Below are positions 3,797 to 37,520 of a stretch of 44,352 nucleotides of DNA, one piece after another. Origin of the DNA: Nemertoderma westbladi (lineage: Eukaryota > Animalia > Xenacoelomorpha); the NCBI GenBank assembly GCA_032718475.1, contig JAUCBJ010002913.1, positions 1 to 44,352 on the forward strand. Reading direction: 5' to 3'. How positions within the stretch are numbered: the first letter of the stretch is position 1; the number at the start of each line of letters is the position of its first letter. Position numbers and translations under genes: made by a program. The notes under the pieces were generated by a model. It did no database searches. It was given only the letters and a program-made list of their open reading frames with translations, and was not told the origin of the DNA.

Positions 3797-6700
3797 TTAC
3801 TCGTCTACAACAGCAACAACCGGTTGTTTGGCACCTCCTCCGTTCTCCTTCGCTATACGCAGTTTAATCTCCTCGATTTCCAAACCATCTTCATCGTAAT
3901 CCTCACCAGCGGCGAGACCGGCGGCCAGATGATCCTTTACATCGTCGACAGTGATATCCCCTGTGGTGTCCATCTTGTCGTAACCCCTCCCTTCCTCCTC
4001 CAACTCCCCCATAACATCATCATCATCCTCCTCATTGATACCCGACTTACCGAAGGCCTCCTCCATCTCCGACAACATCGCCGCCGTCTCCATATCATCC
4101 CCCGACTTCTCCACACTCTTACTAACAACCGTCTCAGTCTTGGACTCCACCGTCTCGTCCCCGTCGCTCGTCACCAACCTCGACGTCTGCGTCGTCTCCA
4201 CCGAACGATGAGTCACGACAACCGCCGATGTAATGACGTCATCATCGCCGCTTCCGCTCGCGAAAAATTCCTCTTTCATTCGAGCGATTTTCTCGTGGAC
4301 GTTCTCCCCGCGGGACTGCGCCTTATCGTCGTCCGTTCGAGAATTAGTTTCCTCGGGAATCTCAGTAGATTCATCTCTCTCTGGTTTATCTCCCTCCTGT
4401 TTATCTCCCGCCGGTTTATCTCCCGCCGGTTTATCTCCCTCCGGTTTATCCTCAACAGGTTTATCTCCTTCCGACTTCCCGCTCTCTTCCTCCCGTATCG
4501 CTACCACCGGCTTAGGCCGCATCCCTTCAGCCAACTCCACGACGCACACCGGCTTCGTGACGCTCCCCGCGGACAACGTGAACCTGAGGAACTCCCCGGT
4601 CGAACGTAGATAGAAACCCTCGCCAGCGTCGGTGAACACGCAGCTGTTTATACCGACGACGTTGTCCTTGGGGATCCCGTCTACTTTCAGCTGCGGTCGG
4701 AGCGAAGCGAGCGAATAAACTGCGAGCTCGCCGAGGTTGTTTAGACAGGAGATGCAATCCTCGGAGTAGGTTGGATCGACGGAGCTGACGTACTTAGCGA
4801 AACCGATCTTACGAACGCGGGACCCGTCAACGGCGGTGAGACGGAACTTACGCAAGGGTTTCAACGACGGAAGAAGAAACAGTTTCAACTGCTCCTCGGT
4901 AACGACGACTAGAAGATGTTTATTATCCGCGGACGACCTCTCCTCCCCTCTGACCGGACGCCCATCCCGGTCGACGGCCAGCAGCGCGACCACCGGCGCG
5001 CGGTGCTTCAACCGGAGTTCCTTCGCGAGTTCGGTCCGCGAGGAATCCTCGACGACCGACGGGATTAGGTGCACAAGGACCTGCCCACCGTGCGTTCCGA
5101 CCCAGAGAGTCCGACTCCGAGTCAACCCGTCCCGAACGTACGTCTCCACGAAGTAGAGAACCCGAACCATCGAGGACAACGAGGAATCTTCTTTCCGCGT
5201 CTCAACGAGTCGATGGACCCGCGGGTGATCCTCCTCGTGCGGTTCGACTTTAACCGGCGAAATCTCAGCTTTCCCTTCCTCGGATTTACTCGCTTCGCTC
5301 GTTTGGCCTTCCTGCTTCGTTGGCGACTTACTGGCGGACGATCGTTTCTTCCTTAGCCTCCGGAAGGATTCCCGCAACGACTGTTTCAACGTCTTCCTCC
5401 GATTCATCCCTCCGTCGCCTCCGTCGGCCACGTCGCCGCTTCCCGCCGGTGGCAGCGTCGACACCGGGGCCCCCAGGACCGCCGCGCGCTGCACGTCGAC
5501 CACGGCGAACCCGTGCCCGGTCCCGACGGCGACCACCTCCCCCGCGCCGCCGCCGAGAGCGACTGCGGTCACCGAGCCCGGCGGCTCGCACTGCACCAAC
5601 AGGGCGGGCTGAAACCCGGGCGCCGCGTTCAACGCTCCGTCCCTGGGCGCCAACGCCCCGTGGCCTTTCCACACGAATCCCTCGGGTACGATCCGCACCG
5701 CTACGACAGGCACCGCTACCAACCGACTCTCCCGAACCATCCCGTACACAACCAGCTGTCCGGCACTCCCCCCAACGACCAGCCGCCCCCCGGAGAGCGC
5801 GACCTTCTGCACCGCGAGCCGCGGGTCGTCTGTGTAGGGATCGAACTCTCCGACCTTCCGAAACGGAGGCCAATCCTCATCGGCTTCCACAGCCCCGGTA
5901 CCTGCCGAATCCGCGTCAGTAACAAACAAACTCACCGTCTCGGCCTTATACAACAACCGCAGACTCGAATAACCCGCGTCCCAGAAACATAAACTCCCGT
6001 TCTCGTGCCCCGTAACCAACAGATCGCGTCTCTCCTTCTTCCCCCCCAACAACAACTCCTTCCCGCCGGCTACCGGCCACGCCGACCCCGACGCTCCGAC
6101 ACTGAATGCCTCGGCGCCGCTCGCAGCTATATCACTCCACACGCCCTCATCCACGTCGGAGTAATGAGCGGAACAAGTTATAGAAGAGAAATGTAGCGAG
6201 TTGAGGTACGGCTTACGGAAAACCGGCCAACCTTCCGAAGATAAATCTATAAATATTATCTCTTCTTCCGCTAGAATCACTAAAGTAGAAACGACTAAAG
6301 CGTTTCTATCGCCGAAAGCGATGAAATCTACGATCTTTGAGGTTAACTCAAAGACGACGTGGCGGCTTCCTTGCATTACGGTAACGCAATGCCGATCGCC
6401 GTAGGAAGCCCGGGGCATCCCCCCGCTGAACACCGTGTAATCCCCGTCCATCCCGGACCCAATGGCCAACCGCTCGATCCGCTTACACGGGAAGGGCCCG
6501 TAGGGGATGGCAGGCCCGGTCTGGGGGGCCGCGGGACTCACCGCGTTCCATTGGATCAACGAGCCGTCCGAGTGGGCCACGGAAAAGCGTTCCCCGTTCC
6601 CGAACCAAGCCAGAGCCTCCAACCCCTGCTGGCTGGGAGACACGAAGGTGGAATCCGCAGAAGTCTTCTCGATGTCGAAGAGAACCACCAAACCACGGTT

Positions 6701-7345
6701 GTAACCAATAAGAACGCGATTAGGGTCACACGGATGGACAGCTATCGCTTCAACAGATCCCGGGTTCACTTTATAATCATCCGGGACATTCTGCATGGCG
6801 ACGTTCTGGTAAATAACCGAGTCTAAAAGTTCGAACGTTCCAACATCCAAAACGAAAACGTTACCACTATCCGTACCTAAATAACATCGATTACCATCCA
6901 AACTAATCGCGCACACACTAACTCCATTTAGTTTATTATCATTCACCACTTTATAGGATTTAACCACCTCGATAGACGACTCGGAACCGTCGCTCGACGT
7001 GTTTATTTCCCACAAGTGTAGGGAGTTGGATTGGGGGTCTGACAGGGTTATCACGCGGCCCTGGTGCGGTACGAAGAGCAGCTGGCGGATGGGTTCCGAG
7101 TGGGTCCCGATGAACTCAACGCCGGGCTGGCCCAGCACCCGTAGCTCGCCGGTCTTACTGCCGACGGCGAGGAGACCCAGAGTGGGGTCGTACGCGACGG
7201 CACTCGGTTTACTAGGGAACCCGTGTCGAACTGTCGTTTGGAAGTTAAACAACTCCTTCCTCAATTTATCGCGTGAAATATCTTTGTCGGTCTTTTTAAA
7301 CAGACCCATAACTCTGTTAGCTTTACTTCGCACAGTCGCAGCCAT
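3797..7345 (-). CDS. lgl: Lethal(2) giant larvae homologue (Lgl/LLGL, WD40 polarity protein), intronless, 1182 aa
   Basis: N-terminus KLRKELFNFQTTVRHGFPSKPSAVAYDP...GQPGVEF, PYGPFPCK, FSGGMPRASYGDRHCVTV and WPPFRKVGEFDPYTDDPRL motifs. The polybasic aPKC phosphorylation segment RRKTLKQSLRESFRRLRKKR is typical of Lgl. No C-terminal R-SNARE, so not tomosyn. Confidence 0.93.
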   Translation of the reverse strand: MAATVRSKANRVMGLFKKTDKDISRDKLRKELFNFQTTVRHGFPSKPSAVAYDPTLGLLAVGSKTGELRVLGQPGVEFIGTHSEPIRQLLFVPHQGRVITLSDPQSNSLHLWEINTSSDGSESSIEVVKSYKVVNDNKLNGVSVCAISLDGNRCYLGTDSGNVFVLDVGTFELLDSVIYQNVAMQNVPDDYKVNPGSVEAIAVHPCDPNRVLIGYNRGLVVLFDIEKTSADSTFVSPSQQGLEALAWFGNGERFSVAHSDGSLIQWNAVSPAAPQTGPAIPYGPFPCKRIERLAIGSGMDGDYTVFSGGMPRASYGDRHCVTVMQGSRHVVFELTSKIVDFIAFGDRNALVVSTLVILAEEEIIFIDLSSEGWPVFRKPYLNSLHFSSITCSAHYSDVDEGVWSDIAASGAEAFSVGASGSAWPVAGGKELLLGGKKERRDLLVTGHENGSLCFWDAGYSSLRLLYKAETVSLFVTDADSAGTGAVEADEDWPPFRKVGEFDPYTDDPRLAVQKVALSGGRLVVGGSAGQLVVYGMVRESRLVAVPVVAVRIVPEGFVWKGHGALAPRDGALNAAPGFQPALLVQCEPPGSVTAVALGGGAGEVVAVGTGHGFAVVDVQRAAVLGAPVSTLPPAGSGDVADGGDGGMNRRKTLKQSLRESFRRLRKKRSSASKSPTKQEGQTSEASKSEEGKAEISPVKVEPHEEDHPRVHRLVETRKEDSSLSSMVRVLYFVETYVRDGLTRSRTLWVGTHGGQVLVHLIPSVVEDSSRTELAKELRLKHRAPVVALLAVDRDGRPVRGEERSSADNKHLLVVVTEEQLKLFLLPSLKPLRKFRLTAVDGSRVRKIGFAKYVSSVDPTYSEDCISCLNNLGELAVYSLASLRPQLKVDGIPKDNVVGINSCVFTDAGEGFYLRSTGEFLRFTLSAGSVTKPVCVVELAEGMRPKPVVAIREEESGKSEGDKPVEDKPEGDKPAGDKPAGDKQEGDKPERDESTEIPEETNSRTDDDKAQSRGENVHEKIARMKEEFFASGSGDDDVITSAVVVTHRSVETTQTSRLVTSDGDETVESKTETVVSKSVEKSGDDMETAAMLSEMEEAFGKSGINEEDDDDVMGELEEEGRGYDKMDTTGDITVDDVKDHLAAGLAAGEDYDEDGLEIEEIKLRIAKENGGGAKQPVVAVVDE
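4381..4472 (-). repeat. 15-bp coding tandem repeat (~6 units, GDKP[A/E]) in the Lgl C-terminal tail
   Basis: Repeated ccggtttatctccc[g/t]; protein EGDKPVEDKPEGDKPAGDKPAGDKQEGDKPE. Confidence 0.85.
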
Positions 7346-7530
7346 GTTTAAATGTAAATCTTCAAAGTGTTATTGCTGTATTATTATTAGCACCGGTACC
7401 AGTATCGGTTCGATTTGTAATTATTATCAAATTGTATTGTATTAAAAACGTAACCTAACAGAAAGAAGTACAGGAGTATATTATCAGATTATCAGATTAT
7501 AATATTCTGATATTACTGTATTACTACTGT

Positions 7531-11429: not shown

Positions 11430-11555
11430 ATGTTCCCATCTCGACTAATTATTATATCTCGCCCCATCCCAAATGTTAAAATTATAAATTAAATGGAAAG
11501 GAACATAGGTTTACAGTGGCGCGTTATCCTAGCCAAAACAATAAACTAAAAATGA
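11430..11555. mobile_element. Left part of a diverged MITE family A copy interrupted by the LTR element
   Basis: ttacagtggcgcgttat...aaaacaataaactaaa matches 7888-7927; the continuation is at 37430-37520. Confidence 0.7.
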
Positions 11556-11603
11556 TGTAAACGCTTTTGCGGATCTAGCTAGTCATTTTCCCCGCAAAGT
11601 ACT

Positions 11604-11710
11604 CTGTAGGTGTTTTAGCGGACATAAAAAGCCGTTTTCCTACTGTGTAGGTGTTTTAGTGGACATAAAAAGCCATTTTTCTGTATGTGTACTTTAGCGG
11701 ACATAACTAG
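11604..11710 (+). repeat. ~41-bp tandem repeats (about 2.5 units) in the outer LTR U3
   Basis: tgtaggtgttttagYggacataaaaagccRttt repeated; absent from the inner element's LTR. Confidence 0.7.
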
Positions 11711-12269
11711 CGATTTTATGCCGCAATACGCCAAAATACTCTTGATACAGTGTAGTTCAGATGACGACATCTATCAGCTGATATGTCCACGTAGAGCTTT
11801 TTCTTTGTTCTTTGTTCACTCGACCAATCAGAGCGATTTTCATTTTATTTGCACAGAAGCCTCCGGGAAATCGCGCAATGCATTATGGTCTTTGTTTACC
11901 TTTTTTCCTAAGCCCAGAACATCGGCTGTGGAATTATTCTGTGTTTCAGACTTTAGCCAAACATTAGAACGGCTTTGATCATAGAAACGTATAACTGTTA
12001 TCAGCTTGTCATATCTCATACAAACCTGATCATATACAAACACCGCATTATTTTACTGCTATTTACTGTCGGTTATTAATTGTATCAGTTGATGGAATAT
12101 TGTTATATTTGGAGAATAACGATAAATAATCAGAAAACCCCAATCTTCTTGATATACTGAAGGTTAGAGAGACCGGTTACATATAGCAATTGCGACTTAC
12201 ATTATAGTGGTTTTGGAGTGAATTGAATGCTATTTCATAGGCCCTACATGTGTCAGTTGCTGTTCTCCT

Positions 12270-12307
12270 TATATATGATTAAAATTAGTGAAGGTTGGCA
12301 GATCAGT
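12270..12307 (+). promoter_or_regulatory. Candidate LTR TATA box / ATTAAA poly(A) signal / Inr cluster
   Basis: TATATA 12270-12275, ATTAAA 12278-12283 and TCAGT 12303-12307; same arrangement in the inner LTR (20015-20052). Confidence 0.45.
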
Positions 12308-12726
12308 GTGCAGCAGTGTGCGGTAGTGTGCATGAGTGTGATAGATAACAAAGCATTTCCTAAAGAATGCGCTTTATACGTGAATCATTAGCCATCCCGT
12401 TGTGTTTAGTGTAAGTCATAACTCTGTTTACATACTTAGAGCGCCACGTCCTAAAGGAACTGTTAATATTTCCCGAAAGTGAATAATATTTGTCAGAGAT
12501 ATTATATTAACGATCAATCGAATAGTACAGTAGGCCTACACCGCTATAAGGTCAGAGCATCCGAATCCAGTCTCCCTTAACCGTGGGTGAATGATCGCGC
12601 ATAGGCTGGCTTCGGCTAATGTAACTTATGTGTATCAAATACTTGTTATAGGCTAAAGTCGATTTATAACCTAGAATACACCTAAATTTGGCAGGTTAAA
12701 CTGCTAAAGGTCTAAAAGAGCGAACA

Positions 12727-12737
12727 ATAACAGTTAT
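12727..12737 (+). other. Non-tRNA primer-binding-site position of outer element, complementary to its own LTR 11991-12001
   Basis: ATAACAGTTAT lies directly after the LTR CA end; its reverse complement ATAACTGTTAT is at 11991-12001 (12 bp if 11990/12738 are included). No TGG start. Confidence 0.75.
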
Positions 12738-14247
12738 AATTTCTTTATTGCAACGTAGGCAATAAAGGCAAAAGTACCAGTTGACCGGTAACCAGTAGGC
12801 CTGACTACCTAACCACCCGAACCGGTACTTACAGCAGTACAGGTACAGCAGTATTATTCGATTTTGAGAATTATATACTGGTAGGTCTTGATATTTAATC
12901 AGGGACTGCAGCCTTGGTTTTTTATTGGTATTTTACTTATTTCTGTCAGTTTTACTTATTTGTAAGTTAATATTGAGCAGAAGGCGTGTAAGCCTGCTCA
13001 GATTGTATAAATAATTTGTAGGCTGGATTGTTGTCTGACTGTTGTTAAGTCTGAAGAGATTGCAGTGTGTGTAGAGTGTATGTCCAATAAAGTACTAGTT
13101 AGGATCGTGGGAGCATCCAGTGCTGTAAGGTAAATCCCCCCGAAAGAATAAGTCGTACTACTCGGTTAGAACGCATACTAACTAACCATTTCGGAGTCTG
13201 CATATACTGTAGTTTATTTAGGCTTGATAGTAGTCTGCCAGCGTTTGGTTTGTATTTTGTTTGTGTAGTCTGTACGGGTAGCGTAATATTTATTATTCAG
13301 AGTTTATGCGATTATTCGCAACATACATACCCCCAAGTTTATTCCTACAGTAATTGTGCTTGTTATACATACCGTTATATTTAAATTAACCCCGGTACTA
13401 CATCAGGGCTGTTTGGCGTAGGTAAAGACTGGTGATTTTATGCTCCGGTCACTCCGGCAGATACCGTGGTTCTTTTAGCTGTACAAGTATTTTTAACTGC
13501 TGGTTATTTGTTGTATACCTACTTGTACCTAATTTAGGGTTTAGTGTACAGTGCTTTCCGAAGGTAATTAGTTTGTAGACAGTATATTTGTGTTGTAAAG
13601 TGGTTAATAGGCACGTTAGGTATAGTAGGCTGCAGTAATCAACTTCTAGGTAGGAACACTCCATGTACATAACGTAGTACTTATAGCGCTACGGCTATAA
13701 GTCGTCAGACGGTGGTATTTTTCCTATCTAGACAATGCAATTTATTTTCTACTGCTTTATTATTTTCAAATACCGTAGTATCCTGTCCGTTTGTAATAAC
13801 CAGATATTCTAACCCCTTGTTAGGCTGGTTTGTAGATTTCTTGTAAAATTACCCCTAAAATTTGTACGTGTAATTTTTGTGTTTGTTTAGAGATTGTAAT
13901 CTCACCCCGTATTGTACGTAATTTGTAGTAATAAGTAACTTAGGAAAGTAGAATTATTTGTTTTAGTGTCCAACAAGTAGCACTTCACTGAGAGTGTACA
14001 GCTTCTGTGTAGTGACTCCCTCCCAGAAATAATAACATTTATTTCAAACATTGACAAAAACCCATAAAAAGGTATATATATATATTTTATAAATCAACTC
14101 AAACCGATTTATAAAACAGTAGGCCTGTCATACATCAATTAGGTCTTAATATCAGTTGGACTACTGCTTAAATAACGGTAATAAAGTAAAGTAAAGTAAC
14201 TAAGTACCCCTAAAATTCAGACATTCAATTATTCTAAAATAATTGCC

Positions 14248-14505: not shown

Positions 14506-14639
14506 TATATAGTGTATATATATCACGTTACACTGGATAACGATATCGGTAATTAATTACTAGGCTAACAGTGATACTGAATTACTAGACTTGCTTTAAC
14601 TGTAATTATAGCAGTAGGCATTCAACTGTACAAACAAAC

Positions 14640-17600
14640 ATGTCTGACACAAAGCAAAACATGTCAGACAATCTCCTAGATACAACCATCTGTAACCCAG
14701 ATAGGAGTGCTGAACGTTTGAGACCAAAGTTCAACTCACCTCCTACTGTAAGAAAGATCATCCCTCCAGTAGTAATATCAGACCCTAGGCTAGTCCAATA
14801 CCGTAGGTCTATCATAGGCACTCGGGCTCAAGTCAAGCGGGATCAAGAAGCAGCTGTCAAACAGCAGCAACACCCTAGCCGAGAACTTATTTCTCAGCGG
14901 CCCGATAGCTCCAGTAGTTTGGATAATGTAGAGCTGACACCCGAGCGTGGAGCAAAGATGGAAGATGCGGTTTATTCGGATCCCCTTCTCATTCTTCCTG
15001 CGGCCGTACTCACTAGGGTATTGATTGCGGTGGAGGAACACCAAATTGATTGGGCGAGAAGTAAGCGATCGACCAAGGACAGTTATGCGGGATACACAAG
15101 GGAGGAACTGAAGTCTATTGTCGAGTCGCAATGGAACTTCCCCGGACCCGGACTCCCGTTTGACTTATCGGAAGCTGCCTGGGAAGACATACACAGGATG
15201 GGAGTGACAAAAGACACTAGTGATCCCGCTGTGTGGAAGAGGTCGGCAGCAGGATACGTACAGGGATTCTTCAGCTCTTTGGAGCGATTAGAGGAACAAC
15301 TGTTTCAACAACCCCAAGGACCTCAAGAGCAGGGAGAGCTGCTTTATCAAGTTCGAGAAAGAATTCTAAGAATCAGACTAATCCTATCGGCCTTTGAGGA
15401 GGCTTCGAAAAGAAGACAAGACACGTCGTTGCAAGTTGCCGTAAAGACTTGGTTTCAGCGGGTGAGTCTCAAGGTTCAAGGAACGGCCCAGTGGAAATCT
15501 CAGCTGGCTGAGCGCTCAACCATGGAGAATCAACAGACGCTACCTTTTCCCAAGTGGAAAGTGAAGCGACAGCAGAGAAACCGCATAAGAGGGACGCTAT
15601 TGATATCTATCTGTCAGACTATCAACGATTTCTAGGTGATGAAGAGTTGAGGAGAAGGCTGGCTGGACTTCGTCCTAGTAGTGAAGGAGCCAAGTTTGTG
15701 CTGGACGCAATAGATACGGAAATGCTAGCTGCGAACCAAGCTAAATTTGATGAAAGCATCCGCATCGCTAAGGTTCAAGAAGAACAAGTAAAGAAAAAAC
15801 GTATAGAAGACCGAAAGGTGGCAGCAGTGGCAGAGGCAGAAGCGGAAAGAAAAGCGGCAGAAGCGGAAAGAAAAGCGGCCGAAGTGGAAAGGAAAGTGGC
15901 AATGGCAGCGGCAGAAGCGGAAAGAAAAGCAGCCGAAGCGGAAAGAAAAGCGGCAGCGGCAGTGGCAGAAGCAGAACGGAAGGCATCTGAAGAGACAGCC
16001 CAACTAGAGTTGGAAAATCTTCAAGAGAAGCAAGACAACTTCAAGAAACAGATAACAGCTAGTCAGATGCAGCTGATAAGTAGATCCACCCCCAAGCGAC
16101 AGGGCTTTACATCATCGGATGAAGGCAATACAACAGATCCTGAAGGCGGAGGAAATAGATCTCGTCTCAGCAGGCGTAGAAGAATGCCCCACCGTCAGAA
16201 ATTGCCTGATTTGCCCCCAGCTGTGAGAAGGCAACTAGCTAGCACAGACTTAGGTAGTACAGAACCCACAGACCAAATTATTAGAGTAGAAAGACTCCCT
16301 ACTATAGTAGATGAGCCTGAAATCATTAGGCCTGTTCTCAAAGCCACCCCTCCGGTGATAGAGACACCTGTACTCCCAGAACCTACCTCTAAATTCCCTT
16401 TGCACAGCACTAAACTACCTGTGCCCAACAGAACCGCCCCTGAGACAGTTCCTGTCCTGGACTCCGAGCGAAATATCAATGATTTGTCGCCCGTTGTCCC
16501 TCGTCTACCCGCTACTATGTTGGCGGCTCCCGCTTCGGCGGTCGAGTGGGTGGATGAGAGACGGCGGGGGATGGATCTCCTGCTCGGGCAGATGCAGGAG
16601 ACTGTTCACCAATTCAAGGGAACAGTAAGGGAAAGTAGGTTAGAGTTGCAAGAAGTGCAGCAGAATATCGCGTTAGAACGCGATAAATTAGTAAATATAC
16701 AAAAAGGTATACCACCACCCCCTGTAACAATGTGTCAACCTGTTAGGTCTGAAGTATTTCATGCGCGAGGTGTGGAGCCTACACGCATCTATACTGCTAG
16801 TGAAGTAGAAACTCCTATAGTAAACCCTATTAAGGGTAATTATAAACCTGTTGACAATGATATTCCATATAGACCTGATCATAATCCGAGAAATTTAAAT
16901 ACCGATAACTCGATATTAAATAACACGAAGGCCCAAGAAAGTTTTACGCGTCAAATGGCTAGAACCGAAGCCCGTCAAGCGGTAAAGGTGCGAGAGATCG
17001 TCAAGTTCAATGGAGATGAGATGAAATGGTTACCTTTTAATGAATATTACAAAGATAACATACAGAACTCTGTGCTATCTAACGGAGAGAAACTTAGATT
17101 CCTCATCGAGTGCTTGGAAGGATCTCCCAAGTTAATGGCGTTAAAGTTTATTGGACATCCAGATGGATTAAGACAAGTTTGGGATACACTAAACATCAGG
17201 TATGGTAATAAGAATAACATAGCTAGGTATTTGTATGCAAAATTGGTAGCGCCCCGAAAGTTCATTAGCAGCGGGATTATAGAGTTTTCCGATGAGATTC
17301 AGGAGATCTGTAGACAATTAGATTGGCTAGGTAAATCTCATGAATATCAGAGTTCTATGGTTATTGGAGCCGTGGCCTCTACTTTACCAAAGGGTGGAGT
17401 AGGTACATGCTGGGACAAGAAAGTCTTATATATGATGGAACAACAATGAAGAGACCCTACCATGGCTGATCTCATGTCATTCTTAGATGGAGAGGTAAAA
17501 TTACAGCTCCTAAAGCAGTCCAGAGAGAAGACACCGGAAAATAAGGTAAGTGAGAAACCCGTTTCTAGGAGAAAGGTAACACCAGTGTGTTATACAGACA

Positions 17601-19279
17601 ACGGCGAAAGCCAGGCCTCTCAAGAAGAGGACAGCGGGAAAGACACTGAAAGATCTTACTATGTCAACAAAGCGCCTAAAGACTAAGTAAATTTAAGTCT
17701 CGATCCAATGACAGGAGAGAACAGGTAACAAAAACTCCTCCTACGTCTCCTAATAGAGTTCACGGAAGAAAGCCCGAGGAAAGAACGAGAGTGCACAACG
17801 TTACCCAAAGTAAGGTGAGTAACATCAAACCAAAATGTGCGCTGTGCGACGGGCCCCACCGTTTAAGAGTGTGTGATAAATTTTTAAAGAAATCACTACA
17901 AGATAGACGTGAAGTCATGTGGGATAAGCGGTTGTGTTATAATTGCCTCAGACAAGGACACCAACGGCGAACCTGTTACTCCGACACAAGGTGTGCAAAG
18001 TGCGGCGTAAAACATCATATCTTGTTGCACACTGAATTCGAAAGAAACAGCCCGAGTCAGGTAAGTGAGTCCGAACTACATGTCCAATTCAGTGATGTGA
18101 ACGACACTGATCAAAGTTCTGAGATGGAAGGATTCTATACAGATGAATTCTCCGACGAAAACGAATCCTGTTACCTAATAAATACCGCAGTGTATCGAGC
18201 ACTTACGTATGAGAAAGAAACTGACAGTGACCTCCCGCTAACTTCTCCTGACCGACAACCATCTTGGAAAGCACCAACTTCCAATGTAGGAATCCGAGAA
18301 TTTCCCGTAGTGCAGTTGAGAGTCCACGGGCCTGACAAGAGTTATATAGTGAACGCCCTCCTTGACTACGGCAGCACAGGAACATTCATCGACAAAGAAC
18401 TAGCCGAAGACATCTTTGCTGGACAACCCAAGTTCCGAACTAAGTTAAACATGTCAGGAACTATGCAGGTTTGCAGTAATTATATATACAGTAATTGCAG
18501 ATTACTATGTAGGTGCGTTGTCCACCCCCCAGGATGAACTAGGAGAACACAGCATAAGGTCAGTAAAATTGGTGGCGATAAAGAACTTCGCTACCAGCCA
18601 AGTGGAACCTTATAACTGGGATGAGGACGATTTCACCCAGCAGCATAAGATACCTAGATTCAACACAGACTACCCTGGAGTGCAAATACTCATCGGCCAA
18701 AATGCGCATGAGGCGCTTGAGACATTGGAGAAACGGCCTGCTCAACCGCAACCACTACAAACCTATGCGGGAAGAACTAGAGTAGGTTGGTACTTTACTG
18801 GCCCTTCCCGTAGAACTCTCATGGAAAGGTTACCCAAAGAAAGGGTCTACCAGGTAAGCGAATGGGAAGAGGAGATCAGTGAGGTAGACGACACAACTGA
18901 GGGAACACCATACTCCTCAGATAATGACGACATCCACCAACTCTTCGATGAGGAGAAGACCATCGACCTCCTTACGGAAAACGAAACTTGGCAAAACCAA
19001 GTGAACCTATGTCACCTCATTCATCCAGCTGAACAAGTCGAATACAACGAAGAACTGAATGAAGTGATAGATCGCTACAATGCGAAGACTCGCGATGAAC
19101 ACGCCGTACGATTCTTTACTCAAGAGGCTGTAGAGCCCAATTCCTACGATAAGGCCCTATCGGTAGAAGAAGAAAGAGCCAAGCAGATCCAGGAAACAAC
19201 TACACGTTTTCTTAAAGATCAAGGAAGATATGAAATTGGTCTGCCATTTCGAAAGCGAGAACCTAAATTTATAAACAAC
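14640..19279 (+). pseudogene. gag: Outer element gag-protease region (frameshifts and stops), ending at the nested insertion
   Basis: ORFs 14640-15635, 15554-17449, 17462-17686, 17791-18537 and 18518-19279. Contains a DUF1759-like capsid segment (KFNGDEMKW...LSNGEKLRFLIECLEG), three zinc knuckles (CALCDGPHRLRVC, CYNCLRQGHQRRTC, CAKCGVKHHILLH) and protease ALLDYGS (DSG in the inner copy). CGA>TGA stop at 17447-17449. Confidence 0.9.
15820..15990 (+). repeat. Coding repeat AEAERKA (21-bp units), predicted coiled coil in Gag
   Basis: gcagaagcggaaagaaaagcg repeated; protein AEAEAERKAAEAERKAAEVERKVA... Confidence 0.8.
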
Positions 19280-20479
19280 TGTAAAAGCTTTTGCGGGATA
19301 TAACTGGCCCTTTTGCTTCGCAATCCAGTTTCCCTTAATGCGCTCAAATACTCTAAAGAAAAACTCCCTAACTCAAAGGATGAAAGCTACCGGCTGATTG
19401 GCTGATTTGCCTAGCGACGGCCTCTTTGTTGGGTTCGATCAACCAACCAGAGCAAGGTCAACCAAGCAGAGCGATTCAGCCTTATGTTGGCTAAATCAAT
19501 GTAATTGGCTGCAAAGGCTAAGGTGGTTTGGCATTTTAGACGATTTGGAACCTGTGGAATATGGAACTCTGCCAATGAGAGCTTTTCCTTTCTGTGTTGA
19601 AATCTACCTGCAGCAGCTCACAGGGTTCAGTGTGTTGGTTTTCCTGATGCCATGAACATCGGCCATGGAATTATTCTGAATTATTCCAACATTAGAACGT
19701 CTTTAATTATAAGATCACATAACTGTTACCGGTACATGACCAGCACTGGACAGCGTGAGGACCGGTACGGTACCTGCTGCTGTATTGCACATTATTTACT
19801 GCTATTTGCTGTTTGTTATTAAATGTATCATTCGTTTGCATATTGTTATTTGGAGAATAACTATAAACGATCAGAAACCCCGATCTTCTTGATACACTAA
19901 GGTTAGAGAGACTGGCTACATATAGCAATTGCGGCTTATATTATCGTGGTTTGTAGTGTGTAGTGAATTGAATGCTATTTTATAGGCCCTACAAATGCCA
20001 GTTGCTATTCTCTTTATATATGATTAAAATCAGTGACTATCGGCAATTCAGTGTGCAGCGGTGTGCAATAGTCTGTATGTGCTTGTCCGCGTAACAAAGC
20101 ATCTCCTAAAGAATGCGCCTTATGTGTAACTTATAATCCATTCGTTGTGTTTAGTGTAAGCCATAGCTCTGTTTATATAGATAGAGCGCCACGTCCTAAA
20201 GGAACTGCTAATATTTCCCGAAAGTGAATAATATTTGTCAGAGATTATATATTAACGATCAATCGAATAGTACGGTAGGCCTGCACCGCAATCAAATTAA
20301 AGCATCCGAATCCAGTCTCCCGGGTATATCCAGCGGGTGAATGGTCGCGCATAGACTGGCTTCGGCTAATGTTGGATTTATTTGTGTCAAATACTTGTCA
20401 TAGGCTAAAGTCGATTTATAACCTAGAAGACATATAGATTTGGCGGGTTAAACTGCCAAAGGTCTTAAAAGCGCGAACA
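19280..20479 (+). repeat. 5' LTR of inner element
   Basis: TGTAAAAGCTTTT...AAAAGCGCGAACA, 1200 bp. Confidence 0.95.
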
Positions 20480-20490
20480 GTAACAGTTAT
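20480..20490 (+). other. Non-tRNA primer-binding-site position of inner element, complementary to its own LTR 19719-19729
   Basis: GTAACAGTTAT lies directly after the LTR; its reverse complement ATAACTGTTAC is at 19719-19729. Confidence 0.75.
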
Positions 20491-20760
20491 AGCTTCTTGA
20501 TTGCGGCGTAAGCAATCAAGTTGATAGTACCGGTCGACCGGTAACCAGTAGGCCTGACTGCCTGATCATCCGGACCGGTACTTACTTACAGTACAGGTAC
20601 AGCAGTATTATTTCGATTGTGATATTGTATATTGTAGGCTGTTAGGGGATTAGGGATTGATCACCCCTTATTCCTTTGCATGGTTTACTTATTTCTGTCA
20701 GTTTTATTTACTAGTAGGCTAATATTGAGCAAAAGACGTGTAAACCTGCTCAGATTGTAC

Positions 20761-21340
20761 AGATAATTTGTAGGCTGGACTGTTGTCTGACTGTTGATAG
20801 GTCTGAACGGATTGCAGTGCATGTAGAGTGTATGTCCGATAAAGTGCCGGTTAGAAATGTAGGGGCAGCCAGAGCTGTAAGGTAAATCCCCCACCGAAAG
20901 AATAAGTCGTACTACTAGGTTAGAACGCATACTAACTAACCATTTCGGAGTCTGCATGTCCTGTAGTTTATTTAGGCTTAATAGTAGTCTGCCAGCGTTT
21001 GGTCTGTATTTTGTTTGTGTAGTTTGTACGGGTAGCGTAATATTTCTTATTTAGATAATTTGTAGGCTGGATAGTTGTCTGACTGTTGTTGGGTTTGAGG
21101 AAATTTCGGTGTGTGTAGAGCATCTGTCCGATAAAGTGTTGGGAACGTAGGGGCTTCAAGTGCTGTGAGGTAAACCCCCTGTGAAGGATAAGTCGTACTA
21201 CTAGGTTAGAACACATACTAACTAATCATTTCGGAGTCTGCATATACCGTAGTATGTTTAGGCTTGATAGTAGTCTGTCAGTATTTGGTCTGCATTTTGT
21301 TTGAGTAGTTTGTACGCGTAGCGTAATATTTATTATTCAG
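20761..21340 (+). repeat. ~290-bp diverged tandem duplication in the inner element leader
   Basis: agataatttgtaggctgga... starts at 20761 and again at 21053; single copy in the outer element (~13010-13295). Confidence 0.75.
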
Positions 21341-22201
21341 AGTTTATGCGATTATTCGCAACATTCATATCCCCAAGTTTATTCCTATAGTAATTGTGTT
21401 TGTTATACATACCGTTATAGTTAAACTAACCCCGGTACTACATCAGGGCTGCTCGGCGTAGGTAAAGACTGGAGATTTTGTGCTTTGGTCACTCCGGCAG
21501 ATACCGTGGTTCTTTTAGCTGTTCAAGTATTTTTAACTACTGATTATTTGTTGTACAAGTACTTGTACCTAATTTAGGGTTTAGTGTACAGTGCTTTCCG
21601 AAAGCAATTAGTGTGTAGGCAGTATATTTGTGTTGTAAAGTGGTTAATAGGCACGTTGGTTCTGGTAGACCGCGGTAATTAATCTCTAGGTAGGAACACT
21701 CCGTGATACATAACGTAGTACCTATAGCGATACGGTTATAGGTCGTCAGGCGGTGGTATTTTCCTATCTGGACAACGCAGTATATTTACTACTACTTATT
21801 ATTTTCAAATACCGTAGTAACCTGTCCGTCGTAATAACCAGATATTCTAACCCTTTGTTAGGCTGGTTTGTAGATTCCCTGTAAAATTACCCTAAAAATT
21901 CGTATTTGTGTATTTGTAATTTTTGTGTTTATTTAGAGATTGTAATCTCACCCAGATTGTACGTAATTTGTAGTAATAAGTAACTTAGGTAAATTAGAAT
22001 TATTTTATTTTAGTGTCCAATAATTAGCACTCCACTGAGAGCGCACAGCTTATGTGTAGTGACTCCCCCAGAAATAATAACATTTATTTCAAATATTGAC
22101 AAAACCCATTAAACGGGTATATATATATTATAAACGCGTCACCCGAACCCATCCTGGACGCCGAGCGAGATATTAAGAATTTATCGCCCGTCGTCTCTCG
22201 C

Positions 22202-25012
22202 TTGCCCGCTACTACATTGGCGACTCCCGCTTCGGCGGTCGAGTGGGTAGCTGAGGGACGACGGGAGATGGGTCTCCTGCTCGGGCAGCTGAGGGAACAT
22301 TGTAAATGTTCCTCCCAGCAGGTCCGGGAGTTGGAAGGGACTGTTCAGCAGTTAAAGGGAGCAGTAAGAGAGGGTAGGTTAGCGTTGCAAGAAGTGCAGC
22401 AAAGTATTGCGTTAGAACGCGATAAGTTAGTAAATTTACAAAAGGGTATACCACCACCCTCTGTAACAATGTGTCAACCTGTTAGGTCTGAAGTATTTCA
22501 TGCGCAAGGTGTGGAGCCTACACGCATCTATACTGTTAGTGTTAGTGAAGTAGAAACTCCTATAGTAAACCCTATTCAGGGTGATTATAAACCTGTTGAT
22601 AATAATATTCCATATAGACCTGATCATAATCCGAGAAACTTATATACCGATAATTCTATATTCAATAATACGATGGCTCAAGAAAGTTTTACGCACCAAA
22701 TGGCTAGAACCGAAGCCCGGCAAGCGGTAAAGGTGGGAGAGATCGTCAAGTTCAATGGAGATGAGATGAAATGGTTACCTTTTAATGAATATTACAAAGA
22801 TAACATACAGAACTCTGTGCTATCTAATGGAGAGAAACTTAGATTCCTCATCGAGTGCTTGGAAGGATCTCCCAAGTTAATGGCGTTAAAGTTTATTCGA
22901 CATCCAGACGGATTAAGACAAGTTTGGGATACACTAAACATCAGGTATGGTAATAGGACTAACATAGCTAGGTATTTATATGCGAAATTAATGGCGCCCC
23001 GAAAGTTTCTTAGCAGCGGGATTATAGAGTTTTCCGACGAGATTCAGGAGATCTGTAGACAACTAGATTGGTTAGGTAAGTCTCATGAATACCAGAATTC
23101 TATGGTTGTAGGAGCCTTAGTATCTACTTTGCCCAAGGGTGGAGTAGGTACACGCTGGGACAAGAAAGTGTTATATATGATGGAACAACAACGACGAGAC
23201 CCTACCATGGCTGATCTCATGTCATTCTTAGATAGAGAGGTGAAATTACAGCTCCTAAGGCAGTCCAGAGAGAAGACACTGGAAAACAAGGTAAGTGAGA
23301 AACCCGTTTCTAGGAGAAGGGTAATACCAGTGTGTTATACAGACGACAGCGAAAGCCAGACTTCTCAAGGAGAGGATAGCGGGAAAGACACTGAAATAGC
23401 TTATTATGTCAATAAAACGCCTAAAGAACAGGTAAGTAAATTCAAGTCTCGAACCAATGACAGGAGAGAACAGGTAAGAAAAACTCCTCCTACGTCTCCC
23501 AAGAGAATTCAGGTGAGAAAGCCCGAGGAAAGAACGAGCGTGCACCACACAGCACATGTTAAAGTAAGTAACATCAAGCCCAAATGTGTGTTGTGCGACG
23601 GGCCCCACCGTTTGAATATGTGTGATGAATTCCTGAAGAAATCATTAGCGGAGAGACGGGAAGTCATGTGGGATAAGCGGTTGTGTTATAATTGTCTCAG
23701 ACGAGGACACCAACGGCGAACCTGTTACTCCGACACAAGGTGTGCAAAGTGCGGTGCGAAACATCATATCTTGTTGCACACTGAATTCGAGCGAAATAGT
23801 CCGAGTCAGGTAAGTGATTCCGAACTACATGTCCAATTCAGTGATGTGAACGACACTGATCAATCTGAGATGGAAGGATTCTATACGGACGAGTTCTCCG
23901 ACGAAAACGAATCCTGTTACTTAATAAATACCGCAGTGTATCGAGCACTCACGTATGAAAAAGATACAGACAGCGACCTCACTCTAACTACTTCTGATCG
24001 ACAACCATCTTGGAAAGCGCCATCTTCCAATGTAGGAATCCGGGAATTTCCTGTAGTACAGGTAAGGGTCCACGGACCTAAAAGGAGTTATGTAGTGAAC
24101 GCCCTCCTTGACTCCGGTAGTACAGGAACATTCATCGACAAAGAACTAGCCGAAGACATCTTTGCTGGACAACCCAAGTTCCGAACTAAGCTAAACATGT
24201 CAGGAATTATGCAGGTTTGGAAATCTACAGTAATCGCGGATTATTATGTAGGTGCGTTGTCCACCCCCCAGGATGAACTAGGAGAACACAGCATAAGGTC
24301 AGTAAAAATGGTAGCGATAAAGAACTTCGCTACCACCCAAGTGGAACCTTATAACTGGGATGAGGACGATTTCACCCAGCAGTTTGAAATACCTAGATTC
24401 AACACCGATTACCCTGGAGTCCAAATACTCATCGGTCAAAATGCGCATGAAGCGCTTGAGACATTGGAGAAACGGCCTGCTCAACCGCAACCTCTACAAG
24501 TCTATGCGGGAAGAACTAGAGTAGGTTGGTACTTTACTGGCCCTTCTCGTAGAACTCTTATAGAAAGATTACCAAAAGAACAGGTATATCAATTAAGTGA
24601 ACGGGAAGTGGAGAGCAGTGAAGTTGACGACCCAACTGAGGGAACACCATACTCCTCAGATAATGACGACATCAACTCCAATGTAGATCAATGGAGACAT
24701 TGCCCCGAGACGATCAATCTAGCCGACATCGCCTCCAGAGGAGCAACTCCTCAAGAACTGATAGATACTCCAGCGTGGTTAGGTGAACCCGACTTCCTAA
24801 GTAAAGAAGATGAATGGCCTCCTCATCTTACCACGGCGGAGATTAGACAGGCCAAGGGAGCGGAGAAAGTAACACAACAACTCAATCGCCCAGCTGGTCG
24901 TTTATGTTTACTGGAAAGAGACCGAAAACTGTCCGGAAACTATGAAAGGCAAGATACTCTTCCCACGACCACCTCCCTAATCCAACAAATATCTAGGGAC
25001 TCCATAACGTAA
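22202..25012 (+). CDS. Inner element ORF: N-truncated Gag, protease, then in-frame fused remnants of RNase H and the integrase C-terminus
   Basis: 936 open codons (first in-frame ATG at 22268). Capsid segment, three zinc knuckles and ALLDSGS, then jumps to VDQWRHCPETINLADIASRG and to QQLNRPAGRLCLLE. RT and integrase core are absent. Confidence 0.85.
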   Translation: MPATTLATPASAVEWVAEGRREMGLLLGQLREHCKCSSQQVRELEGTVQQLKGAVREGRLALQEVQQSIALERDKLVNLQKGIPPPSVTMCQPVRSEVFHAQGVEPTRIYTVSVSEVETPIVNPIQGDYKPVDNNIPYRPDHNPRNLYTDNSIFNNTMAQESFTHQMARTEARQAVKVGEIVKFNGDEMKWLPFNEYYKDNIQNSVLSNGEKLRFLIECLEGSPKLMALKFIRHPDGLRQVWDTLNIRYGNRTNIARYLYAKLMAPRKFLSSGIIEFSDEIQEICRQLDWLGKSHEYQNSMVVGALVSTLPKGGVGTRWDKKVLYMMEQQRRDPTMADLMSFLDREVKLQLLRQSREKTLENKVSEKPVSRRRVIPVCYTDDSESQTSQGEDSGKDTEIAYYVNKTPKEQVSKFKSRTNDRREQVRKTPPTSPKRIQVRKPEERTSVHHTAHVKVSNIKPKCVLCDGPHRLNMCDEFLKKSLAERREVMWDKRLCYNCLRRGHQRRTCYSDTRCAKCGAKHHILLHTEFERNSPSQVSDSELHVQFSDVNDTDQSEMEGFYTDEFSDENESCYLINTAVYRALTYEKDTDSDLTLTTSDRQPSWKAPSSNVGIREFPVVQVRVHGPKRSYVVNALLDSGSTGTFIDKELAEDIFAGQPKFRTKLNMSGIMQVWKSTVIADYYVGALSTPQDELGEHSIRSVKMVAIKNFATTQVEPYNWDEDDFTQQFEIPRFNTDYPGVQILIGQNAHEALETLEKRPAQPQPLQVYAGRTRVGWYFTGPSRRTLIERLPKEQVYQLSEREVESSEVDDPTEGTPYSSDNDDINSNVDQWRHCPETINLADIASRGATPQELIDTPAWLGEPDFLSKEDEWPPHLTTAEIRQAKGAEKVTQQLNRPAGRLCLLERDRKLSGNYERQDTLPTTTSLIQQISRDSIT

Positions 25013-26652
25013 CAACATACGGAGTGGGTGTGTGACTACATTATTTTATATTTATTTTTATTATTTTATATTATGTATGTATTATTATGTAATTTTATTA
25101 TAATCGTTTTATTTAATTTTGTAGCATGTTATTTTAGCGATTATTTAGTAGATTAGTGCAATATATTCGCATTTATTACGTAATTACTTATATTATATAT
25201 TTAGTGCGATGGCGAGAAATAATTATTTTTCTCTTTCCTTACTGTCCGTATCATATTATAAATACGTGACTACAGTAAGATGAAATATCCGTACTTATTA
25301 AAGTACAATAAAGCCACTACTATATTTAAGTATTATTGGTAAGCAGAGTATTAGGAATGCAAAGTTCAGATCCTTGTGTCTCGGCTAAACCAAGCTCTAG
25401 GTAGACCTTGGAAACGACTTGCCTCTTCACACTGACATTGCTTCGTGCGATATTGCTCTCATACCGTATATTAAATAATACATATAGTAGCGTGATGTCC
25501 CTTTAACAGTAGCGTAAAACGCAAAATAAATCTGTTAAACCCTTTGACCATCTGCAATTCTAGTCGATTAAGATATCGCGGCACCCACCGATATACTTGA
25601 AAGACAAAATTCTAGAATTAGTGGTTAACGTCCCCAGACAATTTCTGGAATAAACTGGTGCCCATCCTAAATATTAATTATTAATATTTACAAAATCTGT
25701 CAAATTTTAGATCCTTTAACATTCTAGTCGATTAAGATATCGTAGCACTTACCGATACTCTTAAAAAGACAAAATTCCTAGAATCAAGGATCCCAGTCCC
25801 CAGACACGTTCTGGAATAAAATTACGTCTATTTAACACTAAATAATAAAATTTACAGGAATAAATTTAAATTCATATATTTCAATGAATTTAATAAATTG
25901 TCATTTTGTACAATTTATAACATTCCCAAAATTCCATTAATTAATAGATCATGGGAGCGGAGATTCACTCTATTAAGTGTATTTGTGTGCGAGAATCTCC
26001 AATATATAGTCAATAGCCGATAAAATTCATAAAATCATATATAGAGAGGATATTGACAATTAAAGAATTACTATTAAATAGCATCCCAGATCTGTATGCA
26101 TGGGAATTACCCTAATTCTACCGCTAGCTTTCCATAATGTCACCATAGCAACAACCACGCTAGAATTAGAAGCGAGTTAACAGAACAATAAAAAGCTTGC
26201 TCATTGAATAGCATACGGAATAAATAGCACACCGCTAGTATCCAAGGATACATAATAACAACGTGACATTCTGGAAGGCACTTGACTAACGGACAAATGA
26301 CCCGAATGTGTGATAGAATGTGTACCATTTGTGACAGTTACGTGGAATTTGTGCGTTTGTAGGTGAATGTTACTACTAAGGTGTGTTTACAGTAGCGAGT
26401 CGCAATTGTGAAAGTAACCCTAACTCTCCAGTAAGAACCTGAAGTATATCTAAGCCTTTGGGACGGACGGTGGAGTGGCTCGTGCTGGTTGTTATAGTCG
26501 TTGTGCAGCTACGACGTTGGCGATAGGCACATCGGCGAAAGTACACCAGCGCTGAGGATCTCGCACTGTCCGGGGGCAGAGAGGGGTAGGCAGCGACGCC
26601 CGCTCGCCTAAATATAAACTCATTATAATATGGATAAACTTATATAGCAGAT

Positions 26653-28178
26653 ATGATTGAGTTGATAGAAGATGATCTTGGTATCAGCGAGCGATATACT
26701 CTACCTTTACAAGCGTTTGTTGATAGCTTGATGCGCGGCGACGTTGGTCCAACTACTACGGAGGACGATGGTCGTTATATCTAACCGCCAATGTCCCGGA
26801 AGCAACTTGCGCGTGGGTTGGACTGTAGAAAATTCACCGCTCGCTATACGCATCGTAATGGTATGTATATGGACTTCTTAACTACCGGCCATCCTATCGA
26901 TTTACACGATACGGACGATGTAGATACCGAAAGGGAAATGGTTTTATTTAAATATCATACCCAGCGGAAGCGGAATGATAAACTGAGACTCGAACACGAC
27001 AATTCTATTCGAAACCGACTCGAAAGTGAAGATGTTGAAGAGCCGGATAAACGCAGCGACTTCACCAAAATATCTGGAATTCTTGAGAGAAGCCTATCTT
27101 GATATTACCAGTCAACAGAATCTAGAAACTCGATATCCTCAAGGTATACATCATGACCGCATGGTAGAACTCAAACAGCTCTATTCCACTATGATGTATC
27201 TTACCGTCGATCGACCGCTACCTGTTGTACCGGATAGCTTCGAACGGATGGAGGAATATTATAAGCTGGAGAAAGATCACTCGCGTTTCCCCTATAAGAC
27301 GTGCGTCTTTGGTATTATTGAGATGAATGCCCTAGACCCAACCAACAAACGGAAAGATATAAACATCCGCGGAGACGTTGCGCTAAACACGGTTTTACTC
27401 GCTATACTTACGGGAGTTTCGAGCGAAACTTGTTCGATGTATCACCTACGCTCGCTCGGCTCAAACGATCCTTAAATAAACCTATGATCAGAGTTCCGGA
27501 ATACTCGATCAGACCTCCTCATTCCCTAGTGAGACCTCAAGCTCTTGATCTTAATAGTATGACGGATCCTCCTGAACTGTATTCATTGTTTAAAGATCTA
27601 GTGTTACCCGAGCAATTAGTCGGTGGCACTCCGGTTGTGGGCTCCCTAAATATCCGCCCATCTTACCTGGCCGGATTGGGGCACGGACACCTGATATCGC
27701 CATTCAACCGTATAATCGTAATCGTTCCCGTTTAACACGATACAACCGTCATCAAGGTGGAGGAGAGCGTTGTACGAAACGAGTTAAACGCTATTCTACA
27801 AAGATCAGAAAAGAAACCTACGTTTGTTCAGATAAACTTAAATTATAACGGCAAGTCCAAGCGGTAAACGGATTGGCTTTATCCCAGTTCGATTGGGAAA
27901 TCCCGAATCTCTAAGACGATATTGAGCTTGGATGACCCTATTCTCGGCGAGAGTTTGGACGAACGTATCCAACGATGAGCGGAGGAAAATCAGCTCGAGG
28001 AGAAGCATATCGAAATGGCGGATACCCCGACCATAATCCTACACCTTATGATGCAATCACATTGCACCCTTCACCCAGGAGTTATGGCCCTCCTAGTAAA
28101 GTGGCTCCCCCCAAAGAGAAAAGGACTCTTGCTAGCTTTAAAAAACTGCGTAAACGCCGTCCACGCAAGACAGACTAA
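26653..28178 (+). pseudogene. Inner element accessory coding region of unknown function (degenerate)
   Basis: Homologous to 34631-36181; pieces 26653-27475, 27484-27735 and 27975-28178. Confidence 0.7.
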
Positions 28179-28248
28179 CTGTTTAGAGTATTTTTATATT
28201 TTAGAAACTGTGATTTTTTATATTTTATAGAATTAAATCCCATTTTCT

Positions 28249-28256
28249 GGGAGCGG
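28249..28256 (+). other. Short polypurine tract of inner element
   Basis: ttttctGGGAGCGG immediately before the 3' LTR TG; identical in the outer element. Confidence 0.65.
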
Positions 28257-29455
28257 TGTAAAAGCTTTTGCGGGATATAACTGGCCCTTTTGCTTCGCAA
28301 TCCAGTTTCCCTTAATGCGCTCAAATACTCTAAAGAAAAACTCCCTAACTCAAAGGATGAAAGCTACCGGCTGATTGGCTGATTTGCCTAGCGACGGCCT
28401 CTTTGTTGGGTTCGATCAACCAACCAGAGCAAGGTCAACCAAGCAGAGCGATTCAGCCTTATGTTGGCTAAATCAATGTAATTGGCTGCAAAGGCTAGGG
28501 TGGTTTGGCATTTTAGACGATTTGGAACCTGTGGAATATGGAACTCTGCCAATGAGAGCTTTTCCTTTCTGTGTTGAAATCTACCTGCAGCAGCTCACAG
28601 GGTTCAGTGTGTTGGTTTTCCTGATGCCATGAACATCGGCCATGGAATTATTCTGAATTATTCCAACATTAGAACGTCTTTAATTATAAGATCACATAAC
28701 TGTTACCGGTACATGACCAGCACTGGACAGCGTGAGGACTGGTACGGTACCTGCTGCTGTATTGCACATTATTTACTGCTATTTGCTGTTTGTTATTAAA
28801 TGTATCATTCGTTTGCATATTGTTATTTGGAGAATAACTATAAACGATCAGAAACCCCGATCTTCTTGATACACTAAGGTTAGAGAGACCGGCTACATAT
28901 AGCAATTGCGGCTTATATTATCGTGGTTTGTAGTGTGTAGTGAATTGAATGCTATTTTATAGGCCCTACAAATGCCGGTTGCTATTCTCTTTATATATGA
29001 TTAAAATCAGTGACTATCGGCAATTCAGTGTGCAGCGGTGTGCAATAGTCTGTATGTGCTTGTCCGCGTAACAAAGCATCTCCTAAAGAATGCGCCTTAT
29101 GTGTAACTTATAATCCATTCGTTGTGTTTAGTGTAAGCCATAGCCTGTTTATATAGATAGAGCGCCACGTCCTAAAGGAACTGCTAATATTTCCCGAAAG
29201 TGAATAATATTTGTCAGAGATTATATATTAACGATCAATCGAATAGTACGGTAGGCCTGCACCGCAATCGAATTAAAGCATCCGAATCCAGTCTCCCGGG
29301 TATATCCAGCGGGTGAATGGTCGCGCATAGACTGGCTTCGGCTAATGTTGGATTTATTTGTGTCAAATACTTGTCATAGGCTAAAGTCGATTTATAACCT
29401 AGAAGACATATAGATTTGGCGGGTTAAACTGCCAAAGGTCTTAAAAGCGCGAACA
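28257..29455 (+). repeat. 3' LTR of inner element
   Basis: 1199 bp; about 5 substitutions and one 1-bp indel versus 19280-20479 (counted by eye). Confidence 0.95.
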
Positions 29456-29460
29456 ACAAC

Positions 29461-36181: not shown

Positions 36182-36250
36182 CTGTTTAGAGTATTTTTAT
36201 ATTTTAGAAACTGTGATTTTTATATTTTATAGAATTAAATCCCATTTTCT

Positions 36251-36258
36251 GGGAGCGG
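36251..36258 (+). other. Short polypurine tract of outer element
   Basis: GGGAGCGG immediately before the 3' LTR. Confidence 0.65.
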
Positions 36259-37429: not shown

Positions 37430-37520
37430 AATGAATAATGTTACAGTTTTTATTTTTGGGAGTAATCGGTTGTCATTTTCGTCGATTTTCCCCTGCAGAA
37501 TCGATGTATTTTGATTGCGT
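37430..37520. mobile_element. Right part of the interrupted MITE family A copy
   Basis: gttacagtttttatttttg...ttttcccctgcagaatcgatgtattttgattgcgt matches 7941-8019. Confidence 0.7.

Follow-up and report, generated by a model that had tools for sequence, protein, structure and literature searches.

The analysed stretch of DNA, hereafter the window, comprises 44,352 nucleotides of contig JAUCBJ010002913.1 (assembly GCA_032718475.1) of Nemertoderma westbladi and contains two nested LTR elements (outer 11556-37429; inner 19280-29455), the inner one being inserted between the protease and RT regions of the outer one. Each is delimited by a near-identical LTR pair with TG...CA ends and by a 5-bp target duplication (Table 1). 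The domains DUF1759 (E 4e-12), Peptidase_A17 (4e-36), Integrase_H2C2 and DUF5641 (7e-12) are arranged in the order gag-PR-RT-RH-IN, PF05380 is present in 24 of 24 protein matches, and the ORF at 17680-18537 contains a triple Cys-His box (CX2CX3HX4C, CX2CX4HX4C, CX2CX3HX4H), for which motif definitions in BEL/Pao gag are given in the available part of PMC554778. These domains in this order, together with the triple Cys-His box, identify the elements as BEL/Pao, as the initial annotation had it. The RT pieces of the outer element matched no RT family in the domain search and were placed as RT by eye. The inner element is non-autonomous: RT, integrase, most of RNase H and part of gag are missing from it. 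In the parts that both have, the two are ~85-92% identical internally and are, as judged by sequence, sister families. The first ~350 bp of the two LTR types (11556-11900 versus 19280-19640) cannot be aligned, the remainder is ~80% identical, and immediately ahead of the 3' LTR the two elements do not differ in sequence; a swapped U3 is likely.

Table 1. Coordinates of the features of the two nested elements in the window.
Feature	Outer element	Inner element	Strand	Remarks
5' LTR	11556-12726	19280-20479	+	outer 1171 bp, TG...CA, 7 differences from 3' LTR, TSD AATGA 11551-11555 / 37430-37434; inner 1200 bp, 6 differences from 3' LTR, TSD ACAAC 19275-19279 / 29456-29460
3' LTR	36259-37429	28257-29455	+	second copy of the 11-mer at 36694-36704 (outer) and 28696-28706 (inner)
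Candidate transcription-start zone	11900-11930		+	LTR-type homology begins; analogy with relatives
5' arm of predicted covarying long-range helix	11966-11994	19694-19722	+	uses 25 nt upstream of the 11-mer and its first 4 nt
Predicted self-primer segment	11991-12001	19719-19729	+	LTR 436-446 (outer), 440-450 (inner)
Likely poly(A) signal ATTAAA, then GT-rich stretch	12278-12283	20023-20028	+	overlaps TATA-like TATATAT at 12270
3' arm of predicted helix	12372-12402	20118-20147	+	locally diverged patch
8-bp hairpin just 5' of PBS	12687-12708	20439-20460	+	two one-sided changes, pairing kept
Non-tRNA primer-binding site (PBS)	12727-12737	20480-20490	+	ATAACAGTTAT (outer), exact reverse complement of 11991-12001; GTAACAGTTAT (inner), exact reverse complement of 19719-19729
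9-bp hairpin just 3' of PBS	12743-12767	20496-20520	+	one compensatory change
gag-protease region	14589-19303		+	four overlapping frames; DUF1759, triple Cys-His box
Inner ORF		22100-25012	+	partial gag and protease fused to small pol remnants
RT - RNase H - integrase region	29428-32922		+	several broken frames; Peptidase_A17, Integrase_H2C2, DUF5641
Purine-rich tract adjoining 3' LTR	36251-36258	28249-28256	+	sequence

Approximately 3.3 kb following the integrase in both elements (32920-36258; 24872-28256) consist of tandem repeats and broken ORFs. This region matched no Pfam family, the one piece searched gave no homologue and an atlas match at 0.77 was the only lead; the region could encode an accessory or env-like gene. 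Elsewhere in the window, an intron-less ORF of 1190 codons on the minus strand (3797-7369) encodes LLGL (lethal giant larvae), with a GC content of 53-64% in its core versus ~35% in the flanks. The best identities of the protein are 46-47%, to echinoderm, hemichordate, amphioxus and mollusc proteins, and the ORF is possibly a retrocopy, or the genome may be intron-poor. At 40399-40684, a 22-bp unit whose core is palindromic is arrayed in 12.5 copies.

The initial annotation had noted exact reverse complementarity between the bases that directly follow each 5' LTR and an 11-mer within the same LTR. This is the case in both elements, although the length of 11 bp applies to the inner element only; in the outer one 11990 also pairs with 12738, giving 12 bp. 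Because LTR pairs and 5-bp TSDs define the LTR ends independently of the pairing, both matches begin at the first base after the terminal CA, and the described abutment of the pairing on the LTR boundary is thereby confirmed. Neither PBS is followed by a TGG for a tRNA CCA end, also as noted before, the first TGG being located 152 nt (outer) and 201 nt (inner) downstream; an 18-nt tRNA-type PBS is lacking and there is no TGG within 150 nt of either LTR end. Nor was any tRNA or Rfam family detected within the elements, and there is no element-encoded tRNA-like primer. The 11-mer is found in 28 (outer) and seven (inner) of 20,000 doublet-shuffled LTRs. Anchored matches of at least 11 nt occur at three of 6,522 internal positions in the outer element, two of which are the PBS itself, and at eight of 7,746 in the inner element, one being the PBS. 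The 11-mer is a near-palindrome, and the outer pair may also be read as a direct repeat with one mismatch (10/11). The inner pair decides for the reverse-complement reading, since it matches at 11/11 positions as a reverse complement versus 8/11 directly, and the anchored direct match is just 6 in both elements.

The primer-PBS pairing is the longest all-Watson-Crick helix common to both elements within the ~1.1 kb compared, and the single compensatory change reported between the outer and inner pairs is present. Because 11 of the 112 shared helices of at least 7 bp contain a compensatory change, one such pair is by itself modest evidence, and because the two elements are sister families only one compensatory event may be counted. 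The inner element is without RT yet a recent insertion (6 LTR differences, intact TSD), which implies that the variant pair was copied recently. In both elements the PBS is flanked by two conserved hairpins. No splice junction within the window LTRs extends or replaces the contiguous PBS match. A donor-like AAG/GTTAGA in the LTR (12163 / 19902) and an acceptor-like TTTCTGTCAG in the leader (12950 / 20702) are kept in both elements; the two flank the PBS, and splicing between them would yield an mRNA without it.

Relatives were collected by a metagenome scan, giving 79 BEL/Pao loci (from the best 80 of 504 matches) in 43 clusters, which are 35-40% identical in RNase H to the window element; three scans of viral contigs gave no relatives. 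The curated set encompasses the 16 of the 43 clusters with a settable LTR and LTR 3' end, several of them being close kin. The LTR end was set by motif in seven of the 16 (L027, L026, L049, L047, L040, L015 and L017) and rests on the contig end in L051 and L043. Left out were L053 and L064 (LTR end guessed; best match 6-7 and 9 nt, respectively), L004 and L073 (less than 140 nt of LTR) and L048 (which shares a cluster with L047). Of the 16 curated families, 14 have anchored self matches 10-14 nt long, with letters differing between families, so that the covariation of PBS and LTR 11-mer which the initial annotation proposed to look for in related families is indeed apparent. The match is contiguous in three of the 14, like in the window elements, and exists only across a GT-AG junction in the remaining 11. 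L040 has a 13-nt self match with one mismatch and covaries with its sister L043; the site of L068 is of the TGG type, with 5 nt as its best self match. No self match of at least 7 nt is present in the tRNA-type controls L068, L081 and L082, the latter two being further TGG-type elements taken from genome contigs. When LTRs and PBSs of non-cognate families were combined, 12 of 306 pairs reached 10 nt, nine of the 12 between sister families. A blind scan of 60 upstream regions, which covered 2,011 listed ACA sites and skipped those near the region ends, gave nine matches in seven clusters, all of the junction type and all at YACA/GT ends. When self matches were sought with the LTR ends left unfixed, the output was too noisy to use. 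Under relaxed criteria, 20 clusters, one of which is among those counted above, yielded the candidates L007, L021, L024 and L033 along with clear false positives; none of these enters the counts.

The pairing in the relatives is anchored at the LTR end or at most 3 nt from it, where minus-strand synthesis must start, and as the complement in the junction-type families exists only after splicing, the pairing probably occurs in RNA. The joined, intron-less junction is present in L045 (RNA or DNA) and in L037, within a 3' LTR that has non-element sequence next to it; L037 looks like the product of a spliced 3' LTR copy. The proposal of self-priming is thus supported by the family covariation, the splice-junction primers and the tRNA-type controls without self match, while the specific Tf1-like start at A11991/A19719 has become a less likely version of it. 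Two quick trees were built from a single 245-residue stretch of RNase H. In them the window element forms a long branch next to P0003, and the self-type and tRNA-type rows are separated by a branch with a support of just 50, a single origin being one possibility. Among other features of the relatives, copies of one family (L064 ~5121, L072 ~5822, L076 ~2032) differ in the orientation of a 10-nt segment flanked by TAACA and TGTTA, and a second joint in L045 (174/175), compared to L027 (548/786), skips the LTR end and the PBS and has ends that are not GT-AG-like. The L080-L082 loci are whole 13-kb BEL/Pao elements within contigs filed as a bacterial genome, which are probably animal DNA in a bacterial bin.

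The position of the primer relative to the RNA start is less evident than the pairing. The start had been proposed near the point where the two LTR types become alignable, but the alignment begins at 11903/19639, ~85 nt upstream of the 11-mer. The inner LTR contains TCAGT at 19627-19631, ~90 nt upstream of the 11-mer, and CCAAT boxes are found ~150-170 nt upstream of it in the window LTRs. A TATA box with Inr precedes the primer by 92 nt in L037 and by 102-106 nt in L003, and none was found upstream of the primer in 14 of 16 LTRs, including both window LTRs. A poly(A) hexamer is located downstream of the primer in 14 of 16 LTRs. In the outer LTR, ATTAAA at 12278-12283 is the only poly(A)-like hexamer, and as the TATA/Inr at 12270-12307, suggested earlier as an alternative promoter, overlaps it, this region is more likely the RNA 3' end. 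A longer leader is also indicated by the predicted helix between 11966-11994 and 12372-12402. Its arms are locally diverged between the elements, yet paired within each, with -14.1/-14.5 kcal/mol for the own partner versus -7.1/-5.9 for the swapped one. Among 3,184 window pairs it ranks first in swap sensitivity, with p values of 0.026 and 0.00125 against shuffles, but it was picked post hoc, and across the whole region the best shuffled partner is not surpassed for either arm (fractions 0.40 and 0.28). As the 3' arm lies beyond the likely poly(A) signal, the helix is most simply placed in the 5' leader, with the RNA starting at least 25 nt, and perhaps ~90 nt, upstream of the 11-mer. In the relatives, the 30 nt upstream of the primer pair with post-PBS RNA in four of 18 sets (p <= 0.012), the result being non-significant in 14 of 18. 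Such pairing is absent in the window elements (p 0.75 and 0.40), where 31 nt upstream against post-PBS RNA performed no better than shuffles (0.38 and 0.21). On folding, the primer-PBS duplex of the outer element, ~725-750 nt separating primer and PBS in the window elements, is dominant only if the RNA starts at most 12 nt from the 11-mer and is lost with 60 nt upstream, and that of the inner element is rare (0.02-0.2) for all starts tried. Global folding gave z values of -2.1 and -1.1, and the primer-PBS and upstream-helix conformations are within 1-3 kcal/mol of each other.

Taken together, it is very probable that the window elements self-prime in one form or another, and, going by these matches, they are intron-less members of a broader group whose primers are often splice-assembled. 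That the primer lies within the 5' leader, at a distance of at least 25 and perhaps ~90 nt from the RNA start, and not at the tip, is favoured over each alternative at about even odds. In the mechanism favoured here, transcription would begin upstream of the 11-mer, which would pair with the PBS held open between the two conserved hairpins; the complementarity is exact, and the folding is a prediction. By analogy with Tf1, the RNase H of the element would then cut 3' of the duplex after 12001/19729 and free a 3'-OH that sits opposite the first base after the LTR, from which RT would copy the LTR back to the cut and jump to the R copy at the RNA 3' end, probably near 12300. The upstream leader is predicted to pair with 12372-12402 and to cover the first 4 nt of the primer, possibly as an on/off conformation. 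In Tf1 the primer is retained and copied into the new PBS. If the primer is likewise kept on the minus strand and copied here, paired changes would spread automatically. Intron-less LTRs would result from splicing of the transcript in its 3' LTR copy as well. A broader proposal, which we put forward tentatively as one that may well prove incorrect, is that BEL/Pao constitutes a third self-priming LTR superfamily with a non-Tf1 route, in which the primer is cut inside the leader ~90 nt from the cap, a covarying masking helix acts as a switch, the primer is usually host-spliced across a broad radiation, and intron-less lineages stem from copied-back spliced RNA.

One may also envisage that the elements behave exactly as Tf1 does, transcription starting at A11991/A19719 and the first 11 nt being cut off as primer, with the upstream helix forming only in the 3' LTR copy, where it would mask the second 11-mer, or being due to chance. 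The 11-nt length equals that of Tf1 as given in the accessible part of PMC7175516, both start positions are pyrimidine-A, the outer duplex has a probability of ~1.0 for starts 0-12 nt upstream and drops with longer 5' ends, and the window elements lack the upstream pairing with post-PBS RNA. However, there is no TATA at -30 and the initiator is weak; the helix partner at 12372-12402 is situated past the likely poly(A) signal and is therefore not expected at the RNA 3' end; and the splice-junction relatives, where exon 1 supplies only 3-8 nt of the duplex, would require first exons of 3-8 nt. We therefore regard this version as rather unlikely. Considerably less probable is a 3'-derived primer, according to which transcription is driven by the TATA/Inr at 12270-12307 or by the Inr-like TCAKTY at 12085/19828, so that the 11-mer falls in U3 and its 3'-end copy pairs with the PBS. 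Both candidate promoters are conserved, the TATA and Inr at LTR 715/750 and 736/771 and the Inr consensus at 12085/19828, and with a U3-R 3' end, formation of the upstream helix would be possible. Such a promoter would leave the outer LTR without a poly(A) hexamer, its TATA-Inr spacing of 35 is long, a cut at the 3' end separates R from the template and makes a second RNA necessary, and if the 3' copy were spliced, the progeny would tend to lose the intron, whereas most relatives keep it.

The pairing may, on the other hand, serve as an RNA structure (packaging, dimer or translation switch) while a host RNA such as a tRNA half acts as the primer. One RNA ending in U could pair with both PBSs, via G-U in the inner one, the near-palindromic PBS can weakly self-dimerise (-5.0/-5.6 kcal/mol), and the tRNA-Asn anticodon loop presumably shares six letters with the 11-mer. 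This reading leaves unexplained the concerted changes of LTR copy and PBS, both here and in the 14 of 16 families with different letters; the elements have neither a TGG site nor a tRNA or Rfam family, and the tRNA-type elements show no self match. It is accordingly improbable. Chance, or a functionless duplicated near-palindromic motif, is more improbable still: the sister elements supply one compensatory event only and the outer pair doubles as a direct repeat, but the shuffle rates are 0.14% and 0.035%, the inner pair fits solely as a reverse complement, and the pattern recurs across distant families.

The replication of BEL/Pao elements is poorly understood and is described as tRNA-primed (PMC8742986). 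If self-priming holds, each of the three LTR superfamilies would include tRNA-independent priming. This bears on the order in which self-priming and tRNA priming arose, a question raised in the portion available of PMC3601003, and the elements would be freed both from the tRNA supply and from tRNA-fragment silencing. With an internal or splice-built primer, reverse transcription would be started in a novel manner and be tied to host splicing. Such elements would be overlooked, or given wrong boundaries, by annotation tools demanding a tRNA PBS. In the nested pair, two naturally occurring variants with exact predicted cut sites are present.

The ICTV profile of Belpaoviridae lists an 18-nt PBS for tRNA-Arg or tRNA-Gly and tRNA-primed replication (PMC8742986). 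The window elements agree with this family in having LTRs of 0.2-1.2 kb, the gag-PR-RT-RH-IN order, a purine tract and an animal host, but differ in lacking the 18-nt tRNA PBS although they are BEL/Pao by their proteins. The literature searched, which did not extend to subscription papers, GyDB or Repbase entries, contained no BEL/Pao self-priming, and a word search of the available text of the BEL/Pao surveys PMC554778 (only PCR or sequencing primers), PMC3118150 and PMC6238403 gave no discussion of the PBS. In fungal GalEa copia and bivalve TRIM elements, which have no canonical tRNA site, a structure has been proposed as substitute (PMC6934838, in the part available); as described there, their inverted repeats are inside the internal domain, 12-41 bp apart, whereas the window pairing joins LTR and PBS. 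Self-priming has also been predicted from PBS-LTR complementarity in Tcn1 chromoviruses and in the Ty1/copia TAR lineage (Houba, Osr-1) (PMC6317226, available sections); these are plant or fungal gypsy or copia elements, for which those sections describe no splice-built or internal primer. The closest parallel is Tf1, in which the first 11 RNA bases pair with the PBS and RNase H cuts between bases 11 and 12 (PMC7175516, as far as available). Tf1/Tf2 of S. pombe, Tj1 of S. japonicus and the Tf1/sushi group belong to Ty3/gypsy (Metaviridae), while the window elements are BEL/Pao by their domains. As in the Tf1/sushi group, the window PBS is complementary to a ~11-nt LTR segment and lacks a tRNA site, and the hairpin next to it recalls the U5-IR-like stem-loop of Tf1-type elements. 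The mechanism is thus already known from Tf1, and BEL/Pao self-priming with a possible internal primer is likely new: the Tf1 primer is the first 11 nt of the RNA, whereas that of the window elements may be internal and that of their relatives is intron-split.
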